Shown here piece after piece: positions 45,693 to 56,721 of a stretch of DNA of 64,000 nt. The notes below the pieces were generated by a model, which saw only the letters and a list, made by a program, of their open reading frames with translations, was not told the DNA's origin and did no database searches. This stretch comes from Deltaproteobacteria bacterium. Its GTDB lineage: Bacteria; Myxococcota; Kuafuiibacteriia; Kuafuiibacteriales; Kuafuiibacteriaceae. Location: the NCBI GenBank assembly GCA_040218735.1, contig JAVJQW010000043.1:352001-416000 (forward strand). Reading direction: 5' to 3'. The position numbers and the translations under genes are program-made. The number at the start of each line of letters is the position of its first letter. Within the stretch, counting starts at the first letter, position 1.

Positions 45693-45719
45693 GCACTCGT
45701 GTTACGACCGGCCCGCGGC

Positions 45720-46358
45720 ATGGAAGACATCCTCGCGTTCGTCCAGAGCAGCCCGGGCGGCTGGGGGCTGTTCGCCGTGTTCGCGGCGGCGGCGCTCGAG
45801 TACTTGATGCCGCCGCTCCCCGCGGACACCGTCGTGCTCGCGGGCTCGCTGTTCGTCGTCGCAGGGGTGCACTCGTTTCTGCTCGTCGACACCGTGGCCA
45901 TCGCGGGTGGGGCCCTCGGGGCGGCGGTTCACTTCGGCATCGGGCACAAATTCGCCAAGCCCGACGGTTCTGTCCGCGGTGGGCGCTACGTGGAGATGCT
46001 CGTGGGCGAGGGGCGTCTGGAGAAGTTCTTCGAGGTGTTCCGGAAGCGCGGCATGTGGGTGATCGCGGTCAATCGCGCGCTCCCGGGGATCCGCGCCGTC
46101 ACGTTCTTCGCCGCGGGCGCCGCGCGGCTGCCCTTTACGCGCACGATGGCCTTCGGCCTCATCTCCAACGTGGTGTGGTCCACCGCCATCCTGAGCCTCG
46201 GCGTCGCCCTGGGCGGGAACTGGGAGAAGATCGAGGCCGCGTTTGGCGTCTACAAGACGGTGGTGTACGGAGTCTTCGGGACGGCGCTCGCCCTCTACGT
46301 GGCCTACCGCCTCTACCAACGCACCCGCCGCAAACCACCGCAGGAGCCCCAAGCATGA
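45720..46358 (+). CDS. DedA/VTT membrane protein
   Basis: E..PPLPADT and NRALPGIR motifs. Confidence 0.88.
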   Translation: MEDILAFVQSSPGGWGLFAVFAAAALEYLMPPLPADTVVLAGSLFVVAGVHSFLLVDTVAIAGGALGAAVHFGIGHKFAKPDGSVRGGRYVEMLVGEGRLEKFFEVFRKRGMWVIAVNRALPGIRAVTFFAAGAARLPFTRTMAFGLISNVVWSTAILSLGVALGGNWEKIEAAFGVYKTVVYGVFGTALALYVAYRLYQRTRRKPPQEPQA

Positions 46359-47839
46359 TGCGCCGACCGCTGATCTTCGCCCTCGCCGCCGCGCTGTTCA
46401 CCACGGCGGCGCCCGTCGCCGCCAAGCCCAAGGCCCCGAAGCTCGATCGCGAGGTCTGGTACGGGTTCGAGTTCCTCGGGAACAAGGTCGGCTACATGGT
46501 CGCGCGCGACGAGGGCACGCTGCTGAACGACCAACCCGCGTATCACCTGAACCGGCACACCGTCGTCACCGTGAAGCGTAAGGCGGAGGTCATCAACGTC
46601 GAGTCGTCGACGGACCTGTGGGTCACCCCTGACCTCACGCCGCTGCGGTTCAAGAACGAGCGCCGCGAGGGGAGCGAAGTGCGCACCGTCGAGGGCTACC
46701 GGGACGGGACGTCGTTCGTGATTCGTCGCGCGCTCGGCGGCAACCTCGAGGAGCGCCGCATCCCGATGAAGGGCCTCCGCCTCGCGATGTCGCTGGACCT
46801 GCTGCTGTACCGCGGCCTTTCGAAGGGCAAGAAGTGGACGGGGCGTGCGCTCGGGGAAGAGGACGGTGACGTCCACGACTACGAGGTCGAGGTCACGGAG
46901 GCGAAGGGGAAGGGCAAGGCGCAGCGCTTCGTCGTGAAGTCGCGCGTCGGGAAGCTCGCGACGCTCTCCGTGGTGGAGCCGGACGGGACGATCGAGACGA
47001 CCGAGGTCGTGGGGATCGGTGCGAAGTACACGAAGATGCCGCGCGACGAGGCCGTGAACCTCACCGCGGAGCTCGACGTGTTCAGCCGCGGTCTCTTCGA
47101 GTCGCCGGTACCGCTGCCGCCGGGACACCAGCTCGACAGGATCACCGTCGAGCTCAAGACGAAGTCCGGGCAGCCCCCGCGTTACAAGGCGGATCGTCGT
47201 CAGAAGGTGAAGCGGAAGCGGAAGAAGAGCGTGACGCTGGAGCTGTCGACGGACCGGGCGCCGAAGAAGGCGCCTCGCCTCCCGATCCAGAACAAGAAGG
47301 TGAAGGAGTTCCTGAAGGAGACGCCGTACGAGCCGCTCCTAGACGAGCGCCTCGTCGCGACCGCGCAGCGCGTAGTGGGCGCGGAGAAGGACGCGTGGGC
47401 GGCGGCGCGGGCGATCAACGCGTTTGTGTTCCGCCACATCCAGAACAAGTCACTCGCGCGCGCGTACGCGACGGCGCCCGAGGCGCTCGCGACGCGCGAG
47501 GGCGACTGCACGGAGCACGCGACGCTGTTCTCGGCGCTCGCGAAGATCGTCGGGATCCCGACTCGCCACGCGACGGGGCTGGTCTACGTCGGCCAGAAGG
47601 ACAACGTCTTCGGGTACCACGAGTGGGTGGAGGTCTGGATGGGGTCCGGCGGGTGGGTCGCGATGGATCCCACGTTCGGTCAGGACATCGCCGACGCCAC
47701 GCACATCAAGTTCGCGCAGGGGCAGACGGACAGCGAGGGGCTGCAGGAGGCCGGGATCACGGCGGCGGCGGTGATCGGGGATCTCGATTTGTCCGTCTTG
47801 GAGTACGTTACGGTCGACGGAGCCAAGAAGAAGATTTGA
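46355..47839 (+). CDS. Exported transglutaminase-like protein
   Basis: Signal peptide; GDCTEHA, YHEW and MDPT triad; ATGA overlap. Confidence 0.88.
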   Translation: MMRRPLIFALAAALFTTAAPVAAKPKAPKLDREVWYGFEFLGNKVGYMVARDEGTLLNDQPAYHLNRHTVVTVKRKAEVINVESSTDLWVTPDLTPLRFKNERREGSEVRTVEGYRDGTSFVIRRALGGNLEERRIPMKGLRLAMSLDLLLYRGLSKGKKWTGRALGEEDGDVHDYEVEVTEAKGKGKAQRFVVKSRVGKLATLSVVEPDGTIETTEVVGIGAKYTKMPRDEAVNLTAELDVFSRGLFESPVPLPPGHQLDRITVELKTKSGQPPRYKADRRQKVKRKRKKSVTLELSTDRAPKKAPRLPIQNKKVKEFLKETPYEPLLDERLVATAQRVVGAEKDAWAAARAINAFVFRHIQNKSLARAYATAPEALATREGDCTEHATLFSALAKIVGIPTRHATGLVYVGQKDNVFGYHEWVEVWMGSGGWVAMDPTFGQDIADATHIKFAQGQTDSEGLQEAGITAAAVIGDLDLSVLEYVTVDGAKKKI

Positions 47840-48522
47840 CCCCGACCAAGTACGTCTCGTTCGTTGTCCTCGCGGATCAGCTGCACCACCTCCCCGTCGT
47901 TCTCCGCGCGGCGTTCGAGCATCCGTGGATCGGGAGCTTCCAGGTCGGCTTTGGCCCCCCGCTGCTCCAGAGCTCCGCCCGCCTGAAGGATCGCCTGCAG
48001 GGCGTGGTGGGCGCCCTCGACAAACTCGAAGCCTACTTGGCGGTCTGTGTCCTGGACGCCGCGGAGCGTGAGCGCCTCGCCGTGCAGCACCGACGGATCC
48101 TCGTCCGACGTCACGGCCCGTTGGAGGCCGAGGCGGTGAATCGAGCGAGCGCCGACGTCCTCGACCTGATGCTCCGCCTACGCTCTCCGCTCGACGCGCC
48201 GCCCGACGTGCGTGCGTCGATGGACGCCTACGACGTGGACCCCGCCTGGGTCCCCGACGACGCGGCGCCGGATCTGTTGTCGGGGCGCTTCCTCGTCCAC
48301 CTCTCCGACCCGCGCAACGAGCGCCTCCTGTACGCCGACGCGGTCCGGTCCGTCTGTGACCCCGACACCGCGCTCGCGGTCGACCTCCGCGTCCCCGCCG
48401 TGTTGCGCCCGCTGTGGGCCGCGTGGGGCCGCCACTTCGCGAAGCAGACCGGTTACCGCGTCGTCGACCTCGGCGAGCCCCCCGCGCACGCGCGGGTGCT
48501 GAGGGACGGCACGAGGTCGTAG
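47836..48522 (+). CDS. Hypothetical protein
   Basis: TTG overlaps the upstream TGA; globular composition. Confidence 0.55.
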   Translation: MTPTKYVSFVVLADQLHHLPVVLRAAFEHPWIGSFQVGFGPPLLQSSARLKDRLQGVVGALDKLEAYLAVCVLDAAERERLAVQHRRILVRRHGPLEAEAVNRASADVLDLMLRLRSPLDAPPDVRASMDAYDVDPAWVPDDAAPDLLSGRFLVHLSDPRNERLLYADAVRSVCDPDTALAVDLRVPAVLRPLWAAWGRHFAKQTGYRVVDLGEPPAHARVLRDGTRS

Positions 48523-48541: not shown

Positions 48542-51500
48542 CTAACTGCCCAGGTCGAGTTCGACGGTGTGGTGGTGGTCGAGCTCGTCGACCGCTTCGT
48601 CGTCTTCGCTGTAGCGGACGACGTAGACCGGCGCCATCGCGTCGGGGTCCTTCTTCTCGATGCCGCGGAAGACGGCGCCCTCGGGGAGGCGGACCATCGC
48701 GCCGCCGAGGCCGCCGAGGACCGTGCGGCCGTCGGCGTCGCGGCCGATGGCGATGGGGTCGACGGCGCCGCGCGACGGCGCGAACTGCGAGCTGATCGCG
48801 TCGACCTGAACCATCGCCTCTGGAAGGCGCCGGTTCGCCCAGGCTCGAGCGCCGTCGCCGACGGCGTGGAGCCGACCGCCGGACTTCTCGATCGCGACGA
48901 CGACGTTCGGCTCCGGCCACAGGTAGTGGCAGGGCGCGTCGGTCGGGGCGTCGAACACGTCGGCGCTTTCGACGTCGCCGTCTCGGTAGGCCGTGAGCTG
49001 GCCGTCCTTCGCGACGAGCACCGACATCGGCATCGACACTTCCTTCTGCGCGATGAGGAACATGTCGGCGTCCTCCGGCTGGACCTGTTCGGGCACCGAC
49101 GGCGGCGACCACCGGGACGCGACGACCTCGCCGCCCGCTCGACGCTCGCCGACCTCGAGCTTCTTCTTCGTGAGCCGAACGGGGAGGGCCCACGCGTCTT
49201 CGCCTTCGCCGCCGCGCAGGAGCACGTCGAAGTCACCCGGCGGCACGCCGAGGAAGGTGACCTTCTCGGGGAACGTGTCGACGGGCAGCTTGAACGAGCG
49301 GCCGATGCGGGTGTCGACCGCGCGCACCTGTCCGTTCGGGAGCTGGAACAGATAGACGGCGGGGACGCGCCGCGTCGAAGTGGGCGGCGGGTGCACGCGC
49401 CCGGGGTGGTTCATGAAGAACGTCATCCACTCGTCGTGCGGCGCGCGGCGGGCTGGCCCGTAGAGGTCCGGTGGGCGCAACCTGTGTTGCGGCGCGCGGG
49501 ACAGCGGCTCCACCTCGTCGCCGCCGGTCTTTCGCCAGAAGTCGACGATCTCGTGGTGGACGTCCGTGAGCGGCACCATGCGGGGCGCGCCGTCGGTCGG
49601 GAGCTCCTGCGCGCAGGCGAGGAGGAGCAACGCGCGCGTCAAACCGATCTGCTCCTTCGAGAGTTGCTCGTGACCGTCACCGGAGAAGTTGAGCGGCCGG
49701 AACCAGTTGAAGACGTCGACGTCGCCGTTGAACGCCTGGATGTGGTCGGTGTCGCCTTCGATCGCCGCGGAGGATCCGCTCGCGAGCATCCCCTCGAAGC
49801 CCTGGAGGTTGAAGCCGTTCACCGAGCGCTTGCCGGTGCAGGGGAAGAGCAGGTCGACCAGCTTGACCGTCTCGCGCACCCGCTCGCTCACCGCGAGGCC
49901 GGCGCCCTCGGCGCGCTCGCGCTTGGCGTCGTCCTTGTCCACCACGGTGACGTCGTACGCGAGGTCCTCGGCGAGGCGCTTCGACAGCTCGAGCCCCACC
50001 GTGCCGCCGCTGACCACGCCGACGCGCTCGAGCGCGTCGACCTTGCCGCGGTGGTGCAGCTCCATGAGGAGCGCCTTGGCGAGATCCCACGCGATGATCC
50101 CGCCCTCCGCGATCTTCCCGGGTGCGTTTGCGACGGTGACGATGAAGTGCGTGAGCGCCTCCTCGTTCAGGAGGAGCTCGGTCAGCCCGCGCGTCGTCTG
50201 CTCCACGCCGTGCACCGGCTGCCCGCCGAACGCCGCCTCGATCGACGCGCGGATGTCCGGCGCGCTCCCGAACGGCGAGTCGACCTCCTTCAGACCGCTG
50301 AGCAGCCCGTTGAGGAGCCCGCCGTCGTCGAGCGCGATCCACCCCTCCTTCGGCTTGCGCCCGAGCACCGAGACGGAGCCGAGGAACGCGAGGACTTCGT
50401 GCAGACGCAGCGCTTCGAAGCTGCGGGTCGAGCCCGCGTCGTCGCCCGAGCGTTCGAGGTGGTAGCCCTTGAGCCGACCGTAGGTCGCGACCAGCGGGTT
50501 CGACGCGTACTTCGTGCCGAGGACGTGCACGTCCCGCGCGCTCATGCCGCGCCGCTCGAACGCTTCGAGGAGCGGGATGAACGTCGGGAACATGTGCTGG
50601 ATCGCGATGAGGCCCCGCCCCGCGAAGCGCCCCTCAGGGATGTACTCGAGCGCCTTGTCGATCGCCGGCACGCGCTTGGGGATGAGCGCGTCGTGGCGCA
50701 CCAATCGATCCACGAGCGGGAGCGCGTGCCGCGGCCCCATCATCACGCCGAGCGCCTCGACGATCTGCGCCATGAAGTCGAAGTTCGGCCGCTCGGGGAC
50801 CGGCCGCTGCGCGCCGTCGATCAGCTGCTTTGCGATCGATTCACCGACCTCCCCGTACGTCTGCGCGAACAGCTCGAGGTTGATGCCGGTCGGATCGTGC
50901 GGGTCCTTGAAGGCGTCGAGCAGGCGGAGCAGTCGGGCGACGAGCGCCGCGCGGCGCGGGCCCGTGTACTGCTGCCGGCCGCGCGTCCGGAGCGCCGCGC
51001 TGAGCGGCGACTTCGGGTTGTCGGTGATCTCTTTGGCCAGCGCAGTGATGAGCGGCGTCGCGCCGTAGGTGAGCCCGAACAGGACGTTGTCGAAGCGCAC
51101 CGACGAAGCCTCGGGCCCGAGGCGTTTCACCTCCGCGACCGCCGCCGTCGGGGCGGGCGGGAGGGAGGCTTCGAGCGAGGCCGAGCGCCGGACGACGAAC
51201 GCCGCGTCGGGCGCGAGCTTCCGCAAGACAGCCTGCATGGCCGCGAGCTCTTCCGCGCCCGCCGGGATGTTCCGCGTGCGTTGATCGATCGCCGAGATCG
51301 TCGCCGCGACCAGCGCGCCGGGTTGGCCGTACTGGGTGAGCGCGTCGAACGGCACCTCGTCGCGGAGGTGCACGTCGTCGGGGCCGTCGTCGACGAGGAG
51401 CGTGAACAGCCCGGCGATCAACGCGTCCGGAGTCGGCTTGGTCCCGCGCGGGAGGACGACCTTCAGGTCGTGGGCGAGGTCGCTGTCACCGTCGGCGATC

Positions 51501-51646
51501 TGCTGGAGGATCCCGCCGAGGTAGTCGCGGCCGTGGGTCGCGATCTCCAGGAGGCGCTCGTAGCGGAGCCGGCTGTCCGTGAGGAGGCGGACCGCGCTCG
51601 CGACGGTCGTGCCGATCGTCGGCGTGGGATCGATCCGAACGGCCAC
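48542..51646 (-). CDS. Multidomain protein with a divergent adenosylhomocysteinase-like (NAD-binding) core
   Basis: IQHMFPT, KYAS, LDDGG, VEQTTRG, PGKIAE, SGGTVG, CTG and PLNF motifs; start uncertain (51646-51916). Confidence 0.65.
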   Translation of the reverse strand: MAVRIDPTPTIGTTVASAVRLLTDSRLRYERLLEIATHGRDYLGGILQQIADGDSDLAHDLKVVLPRGTKPTPDALIAGLFTLLVDDGPDDVHLRDEVPFDALTQYGQPGALVAATISAIDQRTRNIPAGAEELAAMQAVLRKLAPDAAFVVRRSASLEASLPPAPTAAVAEVKRLGPEASSVRFDNVLFGLTYGATPLITALAKEITDNPKSPLSAALRTRGRQQYTGPRRAALVARLLRLLDAFKDPHDPTGINLELFAQTYGEVGESIAKQLIDGAQRPVPERPNFDFMAQIVEALGVMMGPRHALPLVDRLVRHDALIPKRVPAIDKALEYIPEGRFAGRGLIAIQHMFPTFIPLLEAFERRGMSARDVHVLGTKYASNPLVATYGRLKGYHLERSGDDAGSTRSFEALRLHEVLAFLGSVSVLGRKPKEGWIALDDGGLLNGLLSGLKEVDSPFGSAPDIRASIEAAFGGQPVHGVEQTTRGLTELLLNEEALTHFIVTVANAPGKIAEGGIIAWDLAKALLMELHHRGKVDALERVGVVSGGTVGLELSKRLAEDLAYDVTVVDKDDAKRERAEGAGLAVSERVRETVKLVDLLFPCTGKRSVNGFNLQGFEGMLASGSSAAIEGDTDHIQAFNGDVDVFNWFRPLNFSGDGHEQLSKEQIGLTRALLLLACAQELPTDGAPRMVPLTDVHHEIVDFWRKTGGDEVEPLSRAPQHRLRPPDLYGPARRAPHDEWMTFFMNHPGRVHPPPTSTRRVPAVYLFQLPNGQVRAVDTRIGRSFKLPVDTFPEKVTFLGVPPGDFDVLLRGGEGEDAWALPVRLTKKKLEVGERRAGGEVVASRWSPPSVPEQVQPEDADMFLIAQKEVSMPMSVLVAKDGQLTAYRDGDVESADVFDAPTDAPCHYLWPEPNVVVAIEKSGGRLHAVGDGARAWANRRLPEAMVQVDAISSQFAPSRGAVDPIAIGRDADGRTVLGGLGGAMVRLPEGAVFRGIEKKDPDAMAPVYVVRYSEDDEAVDELDHHHTVELDLGS

Positions 51647-51743
51647 CTTGCGCCGAATCTGTCCCGGTCGTCGCTCGCAGGACAAGCGATCGAGCATCGT
51701 CGGGCTCCGTGCCGTCCTGGTCGATGCGTAGTAGCTTCGGTTC

Positions 51744-52988
51744 GTGCCGAGCTGGTGGTCGAAGCTGAAAGCTCTCTTCGGTGTCTCACCGGAGCGCCCT
51801 ACGGAGCGACCGGCCGCGGAGCCCGCGCAGTGGCTCGACGCGGACGCCCCCGGCAACCCGTTCGACGTCCCGATCCTCGACCTCATGCTGACGCAGACCC
51901 TCGTCGCGACGTCCACGGATCCGCAGGTCGCGGCCCGGTCCGTGTCGTGGTCGGGGCGAACCGGGGAGGACCTCGAGCCGGGACCCCTCCTCGAGCGTCC
52001 CGCGATCGACTGCGACCTGTCCTACGCTGCGGCCCGTAGCCTGCCGGAAGGCCTGCTTCACACGCCGTCATCGATGGACGAGAAGTGGGTCCTCGCTTGG
52101 CGCGGCGGCCGAATCTTCGTCGTCCAAAGCTGGTCGGGCGAGGTCGAGGCGATCGCGGACGCGACCCATGTCGACGAGACACTCACCATCCACAAGCTGA
52201 GGCTCGCGGAGTCGACGCCGTTGGCTTCGGGGGATCCCGTGTCGGTCGTCGACTGGCTGATCCGAAGCACCGCGCTGCAACAGAAGTTGCCGTTTCCGGC
52301 GGACGACGCGACGGCGGGGCTCTTCGAGTCGGTCCCCTTCACCGCGTTCACGTTCTTCGGGAACGTCATCTTCTGCGCGGCGCGGAGCTGGAACCCGCCC
52401 CCCGTCGAGCGCCCCCTGCGCAGCGACGGACGCCTGGTGCGCGCCGTCCAGTCCGGGGACCTCGACGCCGTGAACGCTGCGCTCGGTGAAGACGTCGACA
52501 GTCCGAGCACGTTCGAAGGTTACACGCCGCTGCACATCGCCATCGTGAAGGGAAGCCTGCCGCTCATCGCGCGCCTCCTCGAGGCGGGCGCGGATGTCCA
52601 CCGCCGCGCCGACGGCGGGATGTTCGCGCTCGGCATCGCGATCGTGCACGGTCACGACGAAGCCGTCCTCGACGCGCTCGCCGCGGCGGGGGCGGAGCTC
52701 GACGCGACGAACGACGATGGCTTCGGTGCGCTGCACGCTGCCTGTGAAGTCGGTCGCGTCGACGCGATCGAGTGGCTCCTCGAACGAGGCGCCGACATCG
52801 AAGCCCGTACGAACCGCGGCTTCGCGCCGCTGCACATCGCGGGCGCGCTCGGTCACCTCGACGCCGCAAAGGCGCTGGTGAGCCGCGGTGCCGATCGTGG
52901 CGCGGTGTCTACGGACAACAAGGACGTCATCGCCCTCGCACGCGAGGAGGGCCAGACCGAAGTCGTCGCGTGGCTCGAGGAGATGTGA
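51744..52988 (+). CDS. Ankyrin-repeat protein with unknown N-terminal domain
   Basis: GYTPLHIA, GFGALHAA and GFAPLHIA repeats. Confidence 0.88.
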   Translation: MPSWWSKLKALFGVSPERPTERPAAEPAQWLDADAPGNPFDVPILDLMLTQTLVATSTDPQVAARSVSWSGRTGEDLEPGPLLERPAIDCDLSYAAARSLPEGLLHTPSSMDEKWVLAWRGGRIFVVQSWSGEVEAIADATHVDETLTIHKLRLAESTPLASGDPVSVVDWLIRSTALQQKLPFPADDATAGLFESVPFTAFTFFGNVIFCAARSWNPPPVERPLRSDGRLVRAVQSGDLDAVNAALGEDVDSPSTFEGYTPLHIAIVKGSLPLIARLLEAGADVHRRADGGMFALGIAIVHGHDEAVLDALAAAGAELDATNDDGFGALHAACEVGRVDAIEWLLERGADIEARTNRGFAPLHIAGALGHLDAAKALVSRGADRGAVSTDNKDVIALAREEGQTEVVAWLEEM

Positions 52989-53921
52989 TCAGAGGAGCAC
53001 GCGGACGGCGCTCTGACCCCGCAGCTCCTCGAGCCAGACCTTGGTCTGCTCCTCGACGCGCCGCTGATACATCTCCTGATAGATCCGATCCCGAAGCTCC
53101 GCGTAGGAGTTCGGCTTCTTGAAGCGCCGCCCCACCAGGTAGACCACGTGCACGCCATTGGCGGTGTCGATCGGGTTGGTGATCGTGCCCGGCTCCACGC
53201 CCTCGAGCGCCACCTTCAGCTCCGGGAGGAGCTGCTTGCCGGACAGCTCACCGAGGTCGCCGCCGTTGTTGCGCGTGGGCCCCTCCGACAGCTCCTTCGC
53301 GACCGCCTCGAAGTCCCCGCTCAGCGCCTGCTTGCGCGCGGCGACGGCCTTGTCGCGGATCGCCGCCTTCTCGGCCTCCGTCGCGTTCTCACCCCACTTG
53401 AAGAAGATGTGCCGGATGTGAACGAGCTCCTCCTGCTCATCGTCCTTCGTGCGCTGGTCGTACTCGGCCTTGATGTCGGCCTCCGGGATGACCACGCGCG
53501 AGCGCACCTTCATGTCGATCAGCTTCAGCCGCACGAGCTGCGACTTGAGGTCCTCGCGGTACTGCCCCATCGACATCCCGCGCGACTCGATCGCCTGCTT
53601 CAGCTGCTCCTCCGAGATGCGGTTCTGGCGGAGGATGTCCTTCACCGCGCGCGAGACCTCCTCGTCCGAGACGGTGATCTTCGCCTGTTTGATCTCCTGC
53701 GCGAGGAGCCGCTCGGAGATGAGCTGGTCGAGGATGTCCTTGAAGAGGAGCTTCTTCCGCTCTTCACCCTCGTTGTGCTGCATGTACGGCTTCGCCGACG
53801 CCTCGACCTCGGAGAGCGTGATGACCTCGTCGTTCACGACGGCCACGATGCGGTCCAAGAGCTCGCGGTCGCTCGGCGCACCCACGGCGAGGGTCGCCAC
53901 CAACATCGTCGTCCACATCAC
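52989..53921 (-). CDS. surA: SurA-like chaperone / PpiC isomerase
   Basis: DRIVAVVNDEVIT, RHI and GGDLG motifs. Confidence 0.8.
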   Translation of the reverse strand: MMWTTMLVATLAVGAPSDRELLDRIVAVVNDEVITLSEVEASAKPYMQHNEGEERKKLLFKDILDQLISERLLAQEIKQAKITVSDEEVSRAVKDILRQNRISEEQLKQAIESRGMSMGQYREDLKSQLVRLKLIDMKVRSRVVIPEADIKAEYDQRTKDDEQEELVHIRHIFFKWGENATEAEKAAIRDKAVAARKQALSGDFEAVAKELSEGPTRNNGGDLGELSGKQLLPELKVALEGVEPGTITNPIDTANGVHVVYLVGRRFKKPNSYAELRDRIYQEMYQRRVEEQTKVWLEELRGQSAVRVLL

Positions 53922-53922
53922 G

Positions 53923-54900
53923 TCACTCCTCGTCCGCTTCGTCGAGCGGCTCGGCGTCGAGGTACCGAATCTGGACCTTCCCGCGCAACCGTTCCTTGTA
54001 GGCCTTCTTGGCCGCGCGCTCCGCCTCCACGCGCATCGTCCGCTTGAGGCGAGGGGCTGCCTCCTCGAACGTCAGGGGCCGCTCCGGCTCCCGCTCCAGG
54101 AGCTGGCAGATGTGAAAGCCGAGCTCCGACGCCATCACCGGCGAGATCTCCTCCGGCTGCAGCGGGAAGCAGCTCTCGTCGAACACCTCCGGCATCTGCC
54201 CGCGCTGGAACCACCCGACCTCGCCGCCGCGCCTCGCCTCCGGCCCGATGCTCACGCGCTCGGCCATCTCGGCGAAGTCCTTCTTCCGCCAGGTGAGGTC
54301 CTTGTGGATCGCCTGCGCGTCCTCCTCGGTCGTCACCATGATCTGGCGCGCGCGCACGCGCTCCGGTCGCATGCGCTCCTCCGGAGGCATCGATTCGAAC
54401 CGCGCCTTCACCGCCTCCATCGAAGGTTCGACGTCCTTCATCGCCTCGCGCTTCAACAGCTCGATCTCGGTGAGCTGGCGCTCGATCGCCCCCACGAACT
54501 CGGCCTCCGTCTGGAAGTTCTCGATCAGCGCCCGCCGGAACTCGTCCGCGCTCCGCCCCTCGCGGAACGCCTCCAGCTCTCGCGCCACCGCCGTCGTGGT
54601 CGTCTTCACGTTCAGGCGCTCCGCCTCCATGGCCAACAGGCGGGTGTCGATCATCGACTCGATCGTGTGTTTGCGGAGTGACTTCGGGAGCTCCTTCGCG
54701 CGCAGCGACCCCTCGCGTTCGAAGCGCTTCCGCGCCAGCGCGAGGTTGATGTCACCCACCGTGATCTTCGCGAGCGGGTGGTCGAGCGGCGTGCCTTCGG
54801 GATCCGTGAAGACGATCGCGACGCGGTCCTCCGCGGAGATGGGTTTTTTCGCCGGGCACCCCGCGAGCAGGAGCACGAGCGGCCAGAGCGCACGTCTCAC
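53923..54900 (-). CDS. PpiC-type peptidylprolyl isomerase lipoprotein
   Basis: LAGC lipobox; ARQIMV, GGEVGWF and SELGFHI motifs. Confidence 0.88.
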   Translation of the reverse strand: MRRALWPLVLLLAGCPAKKPISAEDRVAIVFTDPEGTPLDHPLAKITVGDINLALARKRFEREGSLRAKELPKSLRKHTIESMIDTRLLAMEAERLNVKTTTTAVARELEAFREGRSADEFRRALIENFQTEAEFVGAIERQLTEIELLKREAMKDVEPSMEAVKARFESMPPEERMRPERVRARQIMVTTEEDAQAIHKDLTWRKKDFAEMAERVSIGPEARRGGEVGWFQRGQMPEVFDESCFPLQPEEISPVMASELGFHICQLLEREPERPLTFEEAAPRLKRTMRVEAERAAKKAYKERLRGKVQIRYLDAEPLDEADEE

Positions 54901-55859
54901 GGCGCGGCCTTCTCCTTGGGCTCGAGCTGAATCTTCGAGAACGCGTCCTCGTTCACCACCACGCTGCGCTTTTTCATCAGCTCGTCGATGAACTTGTCGA
55001 ACGCCGCTTCGCGCTTCTCGGCGATGATCTGCCCGCGGAGCTGCGACTTCACCTGCTCGAGTGAACGGTGCACGGCGCGCCGCAGTCCGGTCTTCTTGAA
55101 CAGCACCACGGCGTTCGGCGCGTCGGCGACGACGAGGTCCCCGATCGTCGCGTCCTCGAAGAGGGTCTTCGCGACCTCCTCGCCGTAGCGCTCCGTGAGC
55201 TGCTCGCGGTCGAGGAACTGGAGGTCGCCGCCCCCGTTCTTCGTGGCGTCGTCCTGCGAGTGCTGCCGCGCGAGGCGGCCGAACGCGGTCTGGTCGTTCT
55301 TCCGCTGCGCGCTGAGGACTTCGCTCTTCACGCGCGCGAGGAGCTTCTTCGCCGCGGCGCGCTCGCCGTCGGACTCCACGTAGCGGACGATCTGGGAGAG
55401 GCGGATGCGCTCGGGTTTGTTGAGCTCCTTCTCCTTCTGTTTGTACATGATGGCGAGGTCGCCGTCGGTCGCCTCCAGGGCGTCCCCGAGCTGCGCGATG
55501 TGGTCGTTCATCACGCGCTGGACGATCAGACGCTTCAGCTCTGCCTTGATCTGCGGGTCGTCGTACAGCTTCTGGCTCCAACCTTCTTGGGCGAGCAGCT
55601 CCATCCGGACCTCGCCCTCGACGTACTTCTCGAGCTGGCTCGGATCCTTGAGCTGCATCCGCCGGAAGGGGCTCTGCTTGTACAGGCGCTTCTCCAGCTC
55701 CGCGGTGGTCAGGGTGACGGGGCCGATCTGGGCGACGACCTCGCCCTCGGCCACCACCTCGGGGGCGGGGTAGGGCTTGTCGGTGTCACCCGCCTTCTTC
55801 TCGGCCTGTGGGCAGGCCCCCAGGAAGAGGGCCATCAGCGGCAGCAGTCCACGACGCAT
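54897..55859 (-). CDS. PpiC/PrsA-like lipoprotein
   Basis: LGAC lipobox; F..LARQHSQD..GGDL motif. Confidence 0.85.
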   Translation of the reverse strand: MRRGLLPLMALFLGACPQAEKKAGDTDKPYPAPEVVAEGEVVAQIGPVTLTTAELEKRLYKQSPFRRMQLKDPSQLEKYVEGEVRMELLAQEGWSQKLYDDPQIKAELKRLIVQRVMNDHIAQLGDALEATDGDLAIMYKQKEKELNKPERIRLSQIVRYVESDGERAAAKKLLARVKSEVLSAQRKNDQTAFGRLARQHSQDDATKNGGGDLQFLDREQLTERYGEEVAKTLFEDATIGDLVVADAPNAVVLFKKTGLRRAVHRSLEQVKSQLRGQIIAEKREAAFDKFIDELMKKRSVVVNEDAFSKIQLEPKEKAAP

Positions 55860-55962
55860 GCGCAAGCGGGTTAGCACGGTGGGCCCGGACGGCACCAGAT
55901 GGAACGCGCGCCGACATTCGACGGGCTTGCACCGCCCCGAAATTCGGTATCGTCCCGGGTGC

Positions 55963-56721
55963 ATGAGCCACGGCGCCATCACCGAGGCCATCGACCGCGT
56001 GGGCCCCCGCGGCGAGCTGAAGTTCACCCTCGCGGACATCCCCTTCGACGAGCTCCTCCTGCACCTGCACATGGCGCGCTTTACGGGGCTGGTGGAGGTC
56101 GGCGCGGGCGACGACCGCGATCGGGTCTTCCTGCGCGAGGGGTCCGTCGTGGGCCTGCGGCCCCCCGCGGAGGCGGATCACTCGAGCCTCCGGGAGGGCA
56201 TCCTCGCCCTCAAGCTGCTCACGCCGGAGGCGGTCGACGCGGTCACGGACGGCGCGCGCGATGGCCTGGAGATGGGAGAGAAGCTCGTCGAGTCTGGGCG
56301 CGTCAGCGCGGAGGAGCTCGATCGGGCCGTCGAGGAGCAGGCCCGCCGCCGCCTCTTCTCGGTCTACGATCGCTCCGAGGCCGCGGTTCGCCTCGCCGAG
56401 GGCCTGGATCGCCTCGCCCACTTCCACGCGGTCTACGTCGACGTCCGCCCGGCGATCGCATTCGGCATGGTGGTCCGCTCCGCGGCGGGGCGAAAGCAAG
56501 CCATGTTGCAGAAGGTCCGCGACAAGTCGGTCCGGCTCGTCGCCCCCTACGACGAGACCCGCAACGGCTACGGCCTCCCGCCCCCCGTCCTCCTCGCCCT
56601 CCGCGAACTCGCCGAAGGCGTCACCATGAACGGCGACATCGGCCTCCCGGGCCTGTCGTCGTCCGAGACGGCGGGGGTGTTGCTGTTGTTCGATCGGATG
56701 TCGCTGCTCAAGATCGGCTGA
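55963..56721 (+). CDS. DUF4388-like protein
   Basis: L..LH..RFTG.V....R.FLREG pattern followed by a GEKLVE.G motif. Confidence 0.55.
   Translation: MSHGAITEAIDRVGPRGELKFTLADIPFDELLLHLHMARFTGLVEVGAGDDRDRVFLREGSVVGLRPPAEADHSSLREGILALKLLTPEAVDAVTDGARDGLEMGEKLVESGRVSAEELDRAVEEQARRRLFSVYDRSEAAVRLAEGLDRLAHFHAVYVDVRPAIAFGMVVRSAAGRKQAMLQKVRDKSVRLVAPYDETRNGYGLPPPVLLALRELAEGVTMNGDIGLPGLSSSETAGVLLLFDRMSLLKIG

Follow-up and report, generated by a model that had tools for sequence, protein, structure and literature searches.

Does a large, multi-domain protein built around the fold of S-adenosylhomocysteine (SAH) hydrolase (SAHH, AhcY) still carry out the housekeeping reaction, or has the scaffold been turned to another chemistry? 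SAHH is among the most conserved enzymes, and the usual view is of a housekeeping protein with a single function. The question is raised by one gene in a 64,000-nucleotide stretch (hereafter, the window; positions 352,001 to 416,000 of contig JAVJQW010000043.1, assembly GCA_040218735.1) from a deltaproteobacterium placed in the Myxococcota. Located at 48542–51646 on the minus strand of the window, the gene encodes a protein of 1034 residues, designated P0003, which combines a SAHH-superfamily core bearing altered catalytic residues with a duplicated N-terminal helical domain and a likely C-terminal beta-propeller. Our reading, held with about even confidence, is that P0003 is a cytoplasmic nucleoside-transforming enzyme that depends on nicotinamide adenine dinucleotide (NAD), acts on a new substrate and is tied to a small molecule sensed by a Crp-type regulator. 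The putative NAD binding, nucleoside modification, catalysis, substrate class and link to the Crp ligand are all features that we infer.

The minus-strand frame is open over 48542–51916 and yields a normal protein sequence, as judged from the list of open reading frames (ORFs) and the translation. A public protein record of 1034 residues, 100% identical to P0003, begins at the GTG codon at 51646, and the N-termini of P0003 homologues line up with this start in the alignment; the gene was therefore taken as 48542–51646, with its stop codon at 48542–48544. Codon-position GC content in this frame (0.93 at the third position, GC3, and 0.47 at the second) favors the minus strand. At the window's G+C content of about 69%, neither strand is interrupted by stop codons between 48.5 and 52.0 kb, and an antisense plus-strand ORF at 48569–52039 (1156 residues), rich in Arg, Asp, Glu and Val, was rejected as a high-GC shadow that should not be annotated. 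A first-pass annotation, made from the letters of the window, had proposed a large protein here, and the minus-strand ORF, the identical record and the GC3 pattern show that it is real. No paralogue of P0003 was found elsewhere in the 11.6-Mb genome.

The SAHH-like core comprises residues 293–708 (49523–50770, minus strand) and consists of a substrate-type domain and a Rossmann NAD-type domain, as indicated by structural alignment with VIA, by Foldseek and by sequence profiles. When the model of these residues was compared with SAHH structures using VIA-align, a Z score of 36.6 and a root-mean-square deviation (rmsd) of 2.8 Å over 358 residues were obtained with 7r3a_A and other SAHH proteins, and Z scores across SAHH structures ranged from 30 to 37. 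A Foldseek search with the P0003 model returned matches that, as listed through rank 50, were all SAHH or SAHH-like, with E-values from 5.9e-12. At the sequence level, a profile built from the P0003 core and 29 stand-alone relatives (A2; 30 sequences, 390 positions) matched SAHH and AHCYL structures in the PDB with a best E-value of 5.5e-37, the best alignments spanning positions 9–380 of the 390, and it matched the genome's own AhcY in hhalign with a probability of 99.6% (E 9.2e-24, 361 columns). The single P0003 sequence, searched against Pfam, NCBIfam and the PDB, gave nothing beyond a weak Rossmann signal (a sub-threshold TrkA_N match), and a nine-sequence full-length profile aligned with PDB entries over their Rossmann part alone; homology to SAHH is thus clear only with the 30-sequence core alignment and not from the single sequence. 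With its AdoHcyase fold, the core genuinely belongs to the SAHH superfamily. The motifs that the first-pass annotation had described as collinear with AhcY are all present in the translation and align to SAHH in these profile comparisons, and their conservation in relatives shows that they did not arise by chance.

P0003 is not an ordinary AhcY. Two canonical ahcY genes, both with complete classic motifs, are present elsewhere and score 374 and 246+207 bits with PF05221; the protein at issue is therefore not the housekeeping enzyme. One of them, encoding 452 residues (G000:C17:285320-286666; locus L001:1495-2853, minus strand), shares its contig with the P0003 gene at a distance of about 115 kb, roughly 66 kb before the start of the window, and the other, a 472-residue ORF, lies on contig 42 (G000:C42:163042-164334; locus L002:1381-2799, plus strand). 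The co-existence of two housekeeping copies and a rewired one is unusual in itself. No match to PF05221, PF00670, TIGR00936 or any other ahcY model of NCBIfam was detected in the protein (translation P0001), even at E ≤ 1.

The catalytic residues of the core fall into a retained and a changed set. Residue equivalences were derived from a column-by-column reading of the A2–PDB and A2–AhcY alignments, conservation was counted in 34 subfamily members and in 110 wider relatives taken from the best 150 matches, and SAHH residues are given the human numbers that we take to apply (His55, Asp131, Glu156, Lys186, Asp190, His301 and Asn346). His351 of the QH motif (50594–50596; this and the following motifs on the minus strand) aligns with catalytic His55 and is His in 33/34 and 101/110 sequences, the remainder being gaps. 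Asp441, within the DDGG motif at residues 440–443 (50318–50329), aligns with Asp131 of LDDGGD and is kept in 33 of the 34 subfamily members; the wider set has Asp in 97 and Glu in 8 of 110. The motif EQTTRG at residues 482–487 (50186–50203) aligns with SEETTTG and places Gln483 at the position of Glu156. Its E482, Q483 and T484 are invariant in the subfamily (34/34), and Gln occupies the Glu156 position in 105/110 wider relatives. K511-I-A-E514 (50105–50116) aligns with Lys186...Asp190, one residue shorter, and its Lys and Glu are found in 34/34 and 106/110 sequences, the rest again being gaps.

The Rossmann stretch SGGTVG at residues 546–551, with the acidic D570 ending the next strand (49937–50011), coincides with the sub-threshold TrkA_N match. 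G548 and G551 are present in 34/34 and D570 in 33/34 subfamily members, and the position of D570 is Asp in 75 and Glu in 30 of the 110 wider relatives. In the stretch SGSSAAIE...RPLNF (49688–49771), the alignments and counts place Ser626 at His301 (31/34 and 104/110) and Asn653 at Asn346 (31/34 and 104/110), with Glu630 between them (30/34 and 106/110); the CTG and PLNF motifs lie at residues 603–605 and 651–654. All motifs of the family, namely QH, DDGG, VEQT.RG, K-x(2,3)-E, GxGxxG, (C/A)TG, S-x3-E and P-x-N-F, occur in P0003.

Taken position by position, His55 (H351), Asp131 (D441), Lys186 (K511), Asp190 (as Glu, E514) and Asn346 (N653) are kept, and Glu156 (Gln483), His301 (Ser626), the third Thr of EETTT (Arg486) and Asn191 (Gly515) are changed. 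H351, D440/D441, E482, Q483, T484, K511, E514, G548, G551, D570, S626, E630 and N653 are conserved in 30–34 of the 34 subfamily members, and the same active-site positions, D570 excepted, are kept in 97–107 of the 110 wider relatives. Of the nine SAHH positions compared above, kept or changed, all but that of Asn191 are near-invariant: they reach 30–34 of 34 in the subfamily and 97–106 of 110 among the wider relatives, where the exception is Arg486 (Arg in 80/110). At the Asn191 position the subfamily has Gly or Ala, and the wider relatives have Ser as well as these two. Changes specific to the subfamily, at positions where the wider family also varies, are Thr378, Ser546 (the first Rossmann Gly) and Ala628. 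This pattern of conservation looks like a working but re-tooled catalytic site, not a decayed one. Given the replacement of Glu156 by Gln and of His301 by Ser, together with differing adenine-contacting residues near the catalytic His, the core probably acts on a substrate, or leads to an outcome, other than that of plain SAH hydrolysis. The first-pass annotation had called the protein a repurposed NAD-dependent nucleoside-modifying enzyme, and since the active site is altered, repurposed is a fair description.

Could P0003 nonetheless be a third isozyme that hydrolyzes SAH, or S-inosylhomocysteine, by the canonical reaction and has extra domains for its targeting or regulation? A complete SAHH fold of both domains, the five retained catalytic equivalents and the presence of inosine-bound archaeal structures (7r3a and 7r37) among the best structural matches are consistent with such a role. 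Some JGI entries also name relatives 'S-adenosylhomocysteine hydrolase'. In line with the homology of the core, 26 of the 40 relatives scanned pass the Pfam cut-off for AdoHcyase_NAD and 6 have sub-threshold AdoHcyase matches. Twenty relatives match NCBIfam ahcY models with E-values down to 9e-38, but these NCBIfam matches score only 18–130 bits against cut-offs of 275–498, and no curated model exists for the core family. The A2 profile separates the two groups, with family members at 140 bits or more and canonical AhcY at 122 bits or less.

Among 80 metagenome loci of stand-alone relatives, recovered by a scan whose alignment was narrower than A2 and belonging to low-GC organisms (median GC 0.37), 14 have the SAHH-like gene adjoining genes for MTS- and/or FkbM-type S-adenosylmethionine (SAM) methyltransferases, often at 4–50 bp and on the same strand, some with an EamA transporter. 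L083, L098, L103, L125 and L126 look like operons in which a gene for an MTS-type methyltransferase comes first, followed by the SAHH-like gene and then by EamA and/or an FkbM-type methyltransferase, with gaps of 4–50 bp; these loci could represent a dedicated module for SAM/SAH handling, and the association ties the family in general to adenosyl or SAM-related chemistry. An operonic arrangement with methyltransferases would suit an SAH hydrolase. Yet the genome already has two canonical ahcY genes, the protein itself lacks PF05221 and TIGR00936 matches, and Gln for Glu156 and Ser for His301 are near-invariant. The residues next to the catalytic His also differ (HMFPT in P0003, HMTxxT in SAHH). 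In SAHH, the C-terminal tail reaches into the NAD site of the neighboring subunit. The structural alignments end at model residue 708 and about 10–30 residues short of the SAHH C-terminus, so that a counterpart of this tail appears to be lacking, and in P0003 the end of the core is followed by a conserved linker and the propeller. On balance, we regard a canonical isozyme as quite unlikely, and a nucleoside-transforming enzyme with a new substrate remains the reading that we develop below.

What the regions flanking the core contribute is suggested by structural modeling. An AlphaFold2 model of P0003 from a 41-sequence alignment, with a mean predicted local distance difference test (pLDDT) score of 87.5 and a predicted template modeling (pTM) score of 0.87, is helical over residues 1–335, alpha/beta over approximately 340–710 and beta-rich from about 760. 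The N-terminal part contains two helical repeats, the first at residues ~16–165 (51152–51601, minus strand), chiefly helical in the model with short strands at 26–28 and 97–99, and the second at residues ~175–335 (50642–51124, minus strand), whose last helices pack on, and overlap, the start of the SAHH-like core. Sub-alignments of the two repeats match each other in hhalign with a probability of 96.9% (E 1.8e-10, 131 columns), and their secondary-structure elements follow an identical order in the model. The duplication is therefore real, as the first-pass annotation had suggested in describing two flanking repeats of about 150 residues. BLASTP between the two N-terminal halves found nothing (E 1.2), the repeats being too divergent, and neither Pfam nor NCBIfam gave a match to them.

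The C-terminal tail, which the first-pass annotation had recognized as beta-rich, resolves into a linker of about 50 residues and a likely beta-propeller of about 290 residues. The propeller, at residues ~738–1034 (48545–49435, minus strand), follows a conserved HDEWM linker and was delineated with a separate structure model. Modeled alone, residues 725–1034 gave a pLDDT of 92.0 and a pTM of 0.85, and all 50 matches listed by VIA for this model were beta-propellers. The best was lmo1340 (4nlm_A; Z 9.6, rmsd 6.0, 239 aligned residues), followed by a bacterial DPP4 propeller (7y4f_A; Z 9.4, rmsd 4.3, 234 aligned) and Atg18 (Z 9.2); these Z scores are slightly above the background of 7–8 stated for the tool. 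The Foldseek matches listed for this domain were WD40 and acylaminoacyl-peptidase propellers, with E-values from 7.3e-5, and no propeller repeat family of Pfam matched it. Because the scores are modestly above background, a beta-propeller fold class is likely, as judged from the model, and no specific family was assigned. The most likely role of the helical duplication and the propeller is to serve as docking sites for partners or as gates to the core.

Such an architecture invites comparison with AHCYL1 and AHCYL2, which are enzymatically inactive regulators. P0003 might likewise be a non-catalytic sensor or scaffold of the AHCYL/IRBIT kind, its core binding NAD(H) or a nucleoside and relaying its state through the repeats and the propeller. 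The flanking domains appear non-enzymatic and have no family match, propellers are typically interaction platforms, the domains fused to the core in relatives are highly varied, and the two best PDB hits of the profile are AHCYL proteins (3mtg and 3gvp). The loss of the Glu156 and His301 equivalents, together with the Ser that 23 of the 34 subfamily members carry in place of the first Rossmann Gly, would also fit a protein that binds without turning over. The lead of AHCYL over true SAHH is, however, a matter of a few bits. Furthermore, near-invariant Lys, Glu, His, Asp, Gln, Ser and Asn residues in proteins of about 25% overall identity look like an active site, and the stand-alone relatives in operons with methyltransferases point to metabolism. 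We therefore consider a purely sensory role possible, though unlikely.

If P0003 is an enzyme, what might it serve? ORF clustering around the loci of relatives revealed a single shared neighbor family, a regulator with cNMP_binding and HTH_Crp_2 domains. The gene for this Crp-type protein is adjacent in 7 of 11 P0003-type loci (L006, L007, L008, L010, L012, L046 and L047), a count that leaves out L009, where the gene is incomplete, lying at one end of a 4.7-kb contig, and no Crp gene is seen in the 2-kb flank. Of 24 core-only loci, 6 have such a gene in the flanking sequence that was retrieved. HTH_Crp_2 proteins are rare in this genome, with 10 matches in 11.6 Mb. The profile of the partner has one outstanding match in the genome (G000:C21:48539-49240) at 251 bits, the next scoring 151. 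Across 41 related genomes, all 9 with a SAHH-like gene (at least 140 bits) carry a partner-type Crp (E ≤ 1e-40), compared with 2 of the 32 without, and those two have weak long-frame matches. In a genome of the same genus, the distance between a partner-type Crp gene and a different SAHH-like gene is about 650 bp.

The nature of the Crp partners offers a hint about the ligand. In E. coli CRP, an Arg-Ser pair holds the cyclic phosphate. In the alignment, the partner Crps (e.g., L008:6204-7028 and L022:5864-6637) have a conserved Glu in its place, which hints at a ligand other than a cyclic nucleotide. None of the 80 stand-alone metagenome loci contains a Crp-type gene, so the link is not family-wide. 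A complex prediction of the core with this genome's partner-type Crp scored 0.00 and neither supports nor opposes binding.

These observations can be combined into a working scheme. The core would hold NAD tightly and run an SAHH-type cycle on a ribose-containing substrate, in which the 3'-OH would be oxidized, the Lys/Asp/His set would remove the 4' proton, the 5' substituent would be eliminated or exchanged, and the sugar would be re-reduced. The helical repeats and the propeller would bind partners or regulate entry to the core. The most likely role of the enzyme would be to make or remove the small molecule sensed by Crp, or to be controlled by it. A broader proposal is that the rewired SAHH-like enzymes and the Arg-less Crps of Myxococcota form a previously unknown nucleoside-ligand signaling system, in which SAHH-type NAD chemistry would produce or destroy a ligand derived from adenosine or SAH, the Crp-like protein would sense this ligand instead of a cyclic nucleotide, and the varied fused domains would feed in different inputs; it seems to us a long shot.

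Several points weigh against the proposal of a Crp-linked nucleoside-transforming enzyme. The Crp gene is not adjacent in 4 of the 11 P0003-type loci (the window itself, L005, L011 and L045), and none was found in the 64-kb window (best tblastn E 0.36). The partner-type Crp of this genome lies unlinked on another contig (contig 21) among unrelated genes, and the ORF downstream of it is not SAHH-like (hhalign probability 0.4%). The co-occurrence count is inflated because the Crp profile was built from the neighbors, in part those of the same genomes, and because kinship among the genomes makes them non-independent. As to the methyltransferase context, it comes from another clade, that of the low-GC stand-alone proteins, and may not transfer to P0003. 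Finally, the first position of GxGxxG, which is Gly in 105 of the 110 wider relatives, is Gly in only 11 of the 34 subfamily members, and the Ser found in the others could weaken NAD binding.

How widespread is the family? An exhaustive profile search recovered 2111 representative proteins at E ≤ 0.001, 1092 at E ≤ 1e-10 and 115 at E ≤ 1e-30, of which approximately 33 representatives in the whole search cover most of the P0003 length; a word-indexed search returned 8 homologues besides P0003 itself. The architecture of about 1000 residues was seen in Myxococcota only, and all 32 loci from species genomes derive from metagenome-assembled genomes (MAGs) of this phylum. The core occurs there in proteins of 400–1900 residues whose other regions have no Pfam match, and stand-alone relatives of 370–440 residues carry the same motifs. 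Among 40 other related genomes, 6 contain a P0003 homologue, including 5 of 19 from the same family, and none was found in the same-genus genome, which is 75% complete. In full-text searches of the literature, no multi-domain family of SAHH-like proteins from bacteria came up, the matches to 'SAHH-like' concerning eukaryotic AHCYL.

Three side observations concern individual relatives. One Myxococcota MAG carries tandem SAHH-like genes of 1260 and 1424 residues only 3 bp apart (L020:1245-5027 and L020:5031-9305). Genome G010 has 17 core-profile matches, including the canonical AhcY type, which constitutes a lineage-specific expansion. Just downstream of one subgroup of SAHH-like genes, with products of about 1000 residues, lies in three loci a Peptidase_MA_2 protein (L029:10079-11371, L030:10857-12182 and L033:10111-10362), possibly a second, clade-specific neighbor.

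The patchy distribution among these genomes, the large multi-domain build and a host from the Myxococcota, many of which are predators, might suggest a different function, and the first-pass annotation had indeed raised a predation or conflict effector. Such a protein would be secreted or injected and would disturb methylation or nucleoside pools in prey or competitors. No support was found for this part of the earlier proposal. The N-terminus has no hydrophobic stretch resembling a signal peptide, as judged by inspection only. PADLOC assigned no family to P0003, and some relatives gave weak E1-E2 matches over the Rossmann stretch only. No conserved toxin or small immunity-like partner accompanies the gene; the local neighbors are of housekeeping type and are not conserved in relatives, and the conserved partner is a transcription factor. 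Nor is there a composition anomaly, the GC content of the gene being 0.71 against about 0.69 overall. An effector role is thus highly improbable, and a cytoplasmic nucleoside-transforming enzyme is again the reading to which we return.

In the window, the gene is flanked on the 3' side by a convergent gene of about 225 residues that belongs to no known family and on the 5' side by a divergent ankyrin-repeat gene, and is therefore probably transcribed alone. The ankyrin-repeat gene (51744–52988, plus strand) has its repeats at residues ~299–384, preceded by an N-terminal part of ~290 residues without a family, and is not conserved beside relatives. Beyond it, three consecutive genes with SurA_N and PPIC-type rotamase domains (52989–56072, minus strand; ORFs of 310, 552 and 391 residues, the last two overlapping) suggest tandem members of a family of periplasmic proteins resembling chaperones or isomerases. 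On the other side, the codon-position GC phase of the plus-strand region 45699–47839 switches near 46250–46350, between a 219-residue ORF (45699–46358) and a frame with a transglutaminase core (~47357–47672), so that the region contains two genes or else a single frameshifted one, and a further switch near 47800 opens the ~225-residue gene, which ends at 48522.

These neighbors were considered as partners and set aside. The ankyrin, 47.8–48.5 kb, transglutaminase, NFACT, SurA/PPIase and acyl-CoA dehydrogenase ORFs have no counterpart beside the P0003-type loci L005–L012, and the only matches among all 32 loci were in two core-only ones, L022 (SurA/PPIase) and L033 (acyl-CoA dehydrogenase). Ser/Thr kinases, common to three loci, were likewise dismissed as common background genes of Myxococcota.

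The wider interest of P0003 lies in what its family retains and what it alters. A large sister family (2111 clusters) keeps the SAHH fold and half of the catalytic set and changes the rest in a fixed way. In Myxococcota, the SAHH-like module is fused to many uncharacterized domains, and its occurrence goes together with that of one Crp-type regulator. Should the family perform a new nucleoside transformation, a reaction would be added to the SAHH scaffold, as with AgmF, and a new ligand for the Crp/Fnr family could be revealed. In practical terms, proteins of this family should not be annotated as adenosylhomocysteinase, as some sources now do.

With AhcY/SAHH (PF05221 and PF00670; PDB 7r3a, 7zd8 and 1li4) P0003 shares the two-domain fold, the collinear motifs and probably a bound NAD. 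It differs in its sequence identity of only about 13–20%, in Arg for the third Thr of EETTT, in one residue less in the Lys-acid motif, and in approximately 290 N-terminal and 325 C-terminal extra residues. AHCYL1 and AHCYL2 (IRBIT; 3mtg, E 5.5e-37; 3gvp, E 1.4e-36) likewise join a SAHH-like domain to an extra region, but they are eukaryotic, and their extension is a short N-terminal region that contains neither the repeats nor the propeller. The closest parallel in chemistry is AgmF, described as a dehydratase that is homologous to SAHH, binds NAD tightly and forms a cluster among SAH hydrolases (PMC8599513). As far as that description goes, AgmF belongs, like P0003, to the SAHH superfamily and provides a precedent for a repurposed SAHH, its oxidize, eliminate and reduce logic serving a reaction other than SAH hydrolysis. 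By the same description, AgmF is a stand-alone enzyme in the cluster for the nucleoside antibiotic angustmycin, whereas P0003 is far more divergent, multi-domain and located outside a biosynthetic cluster.

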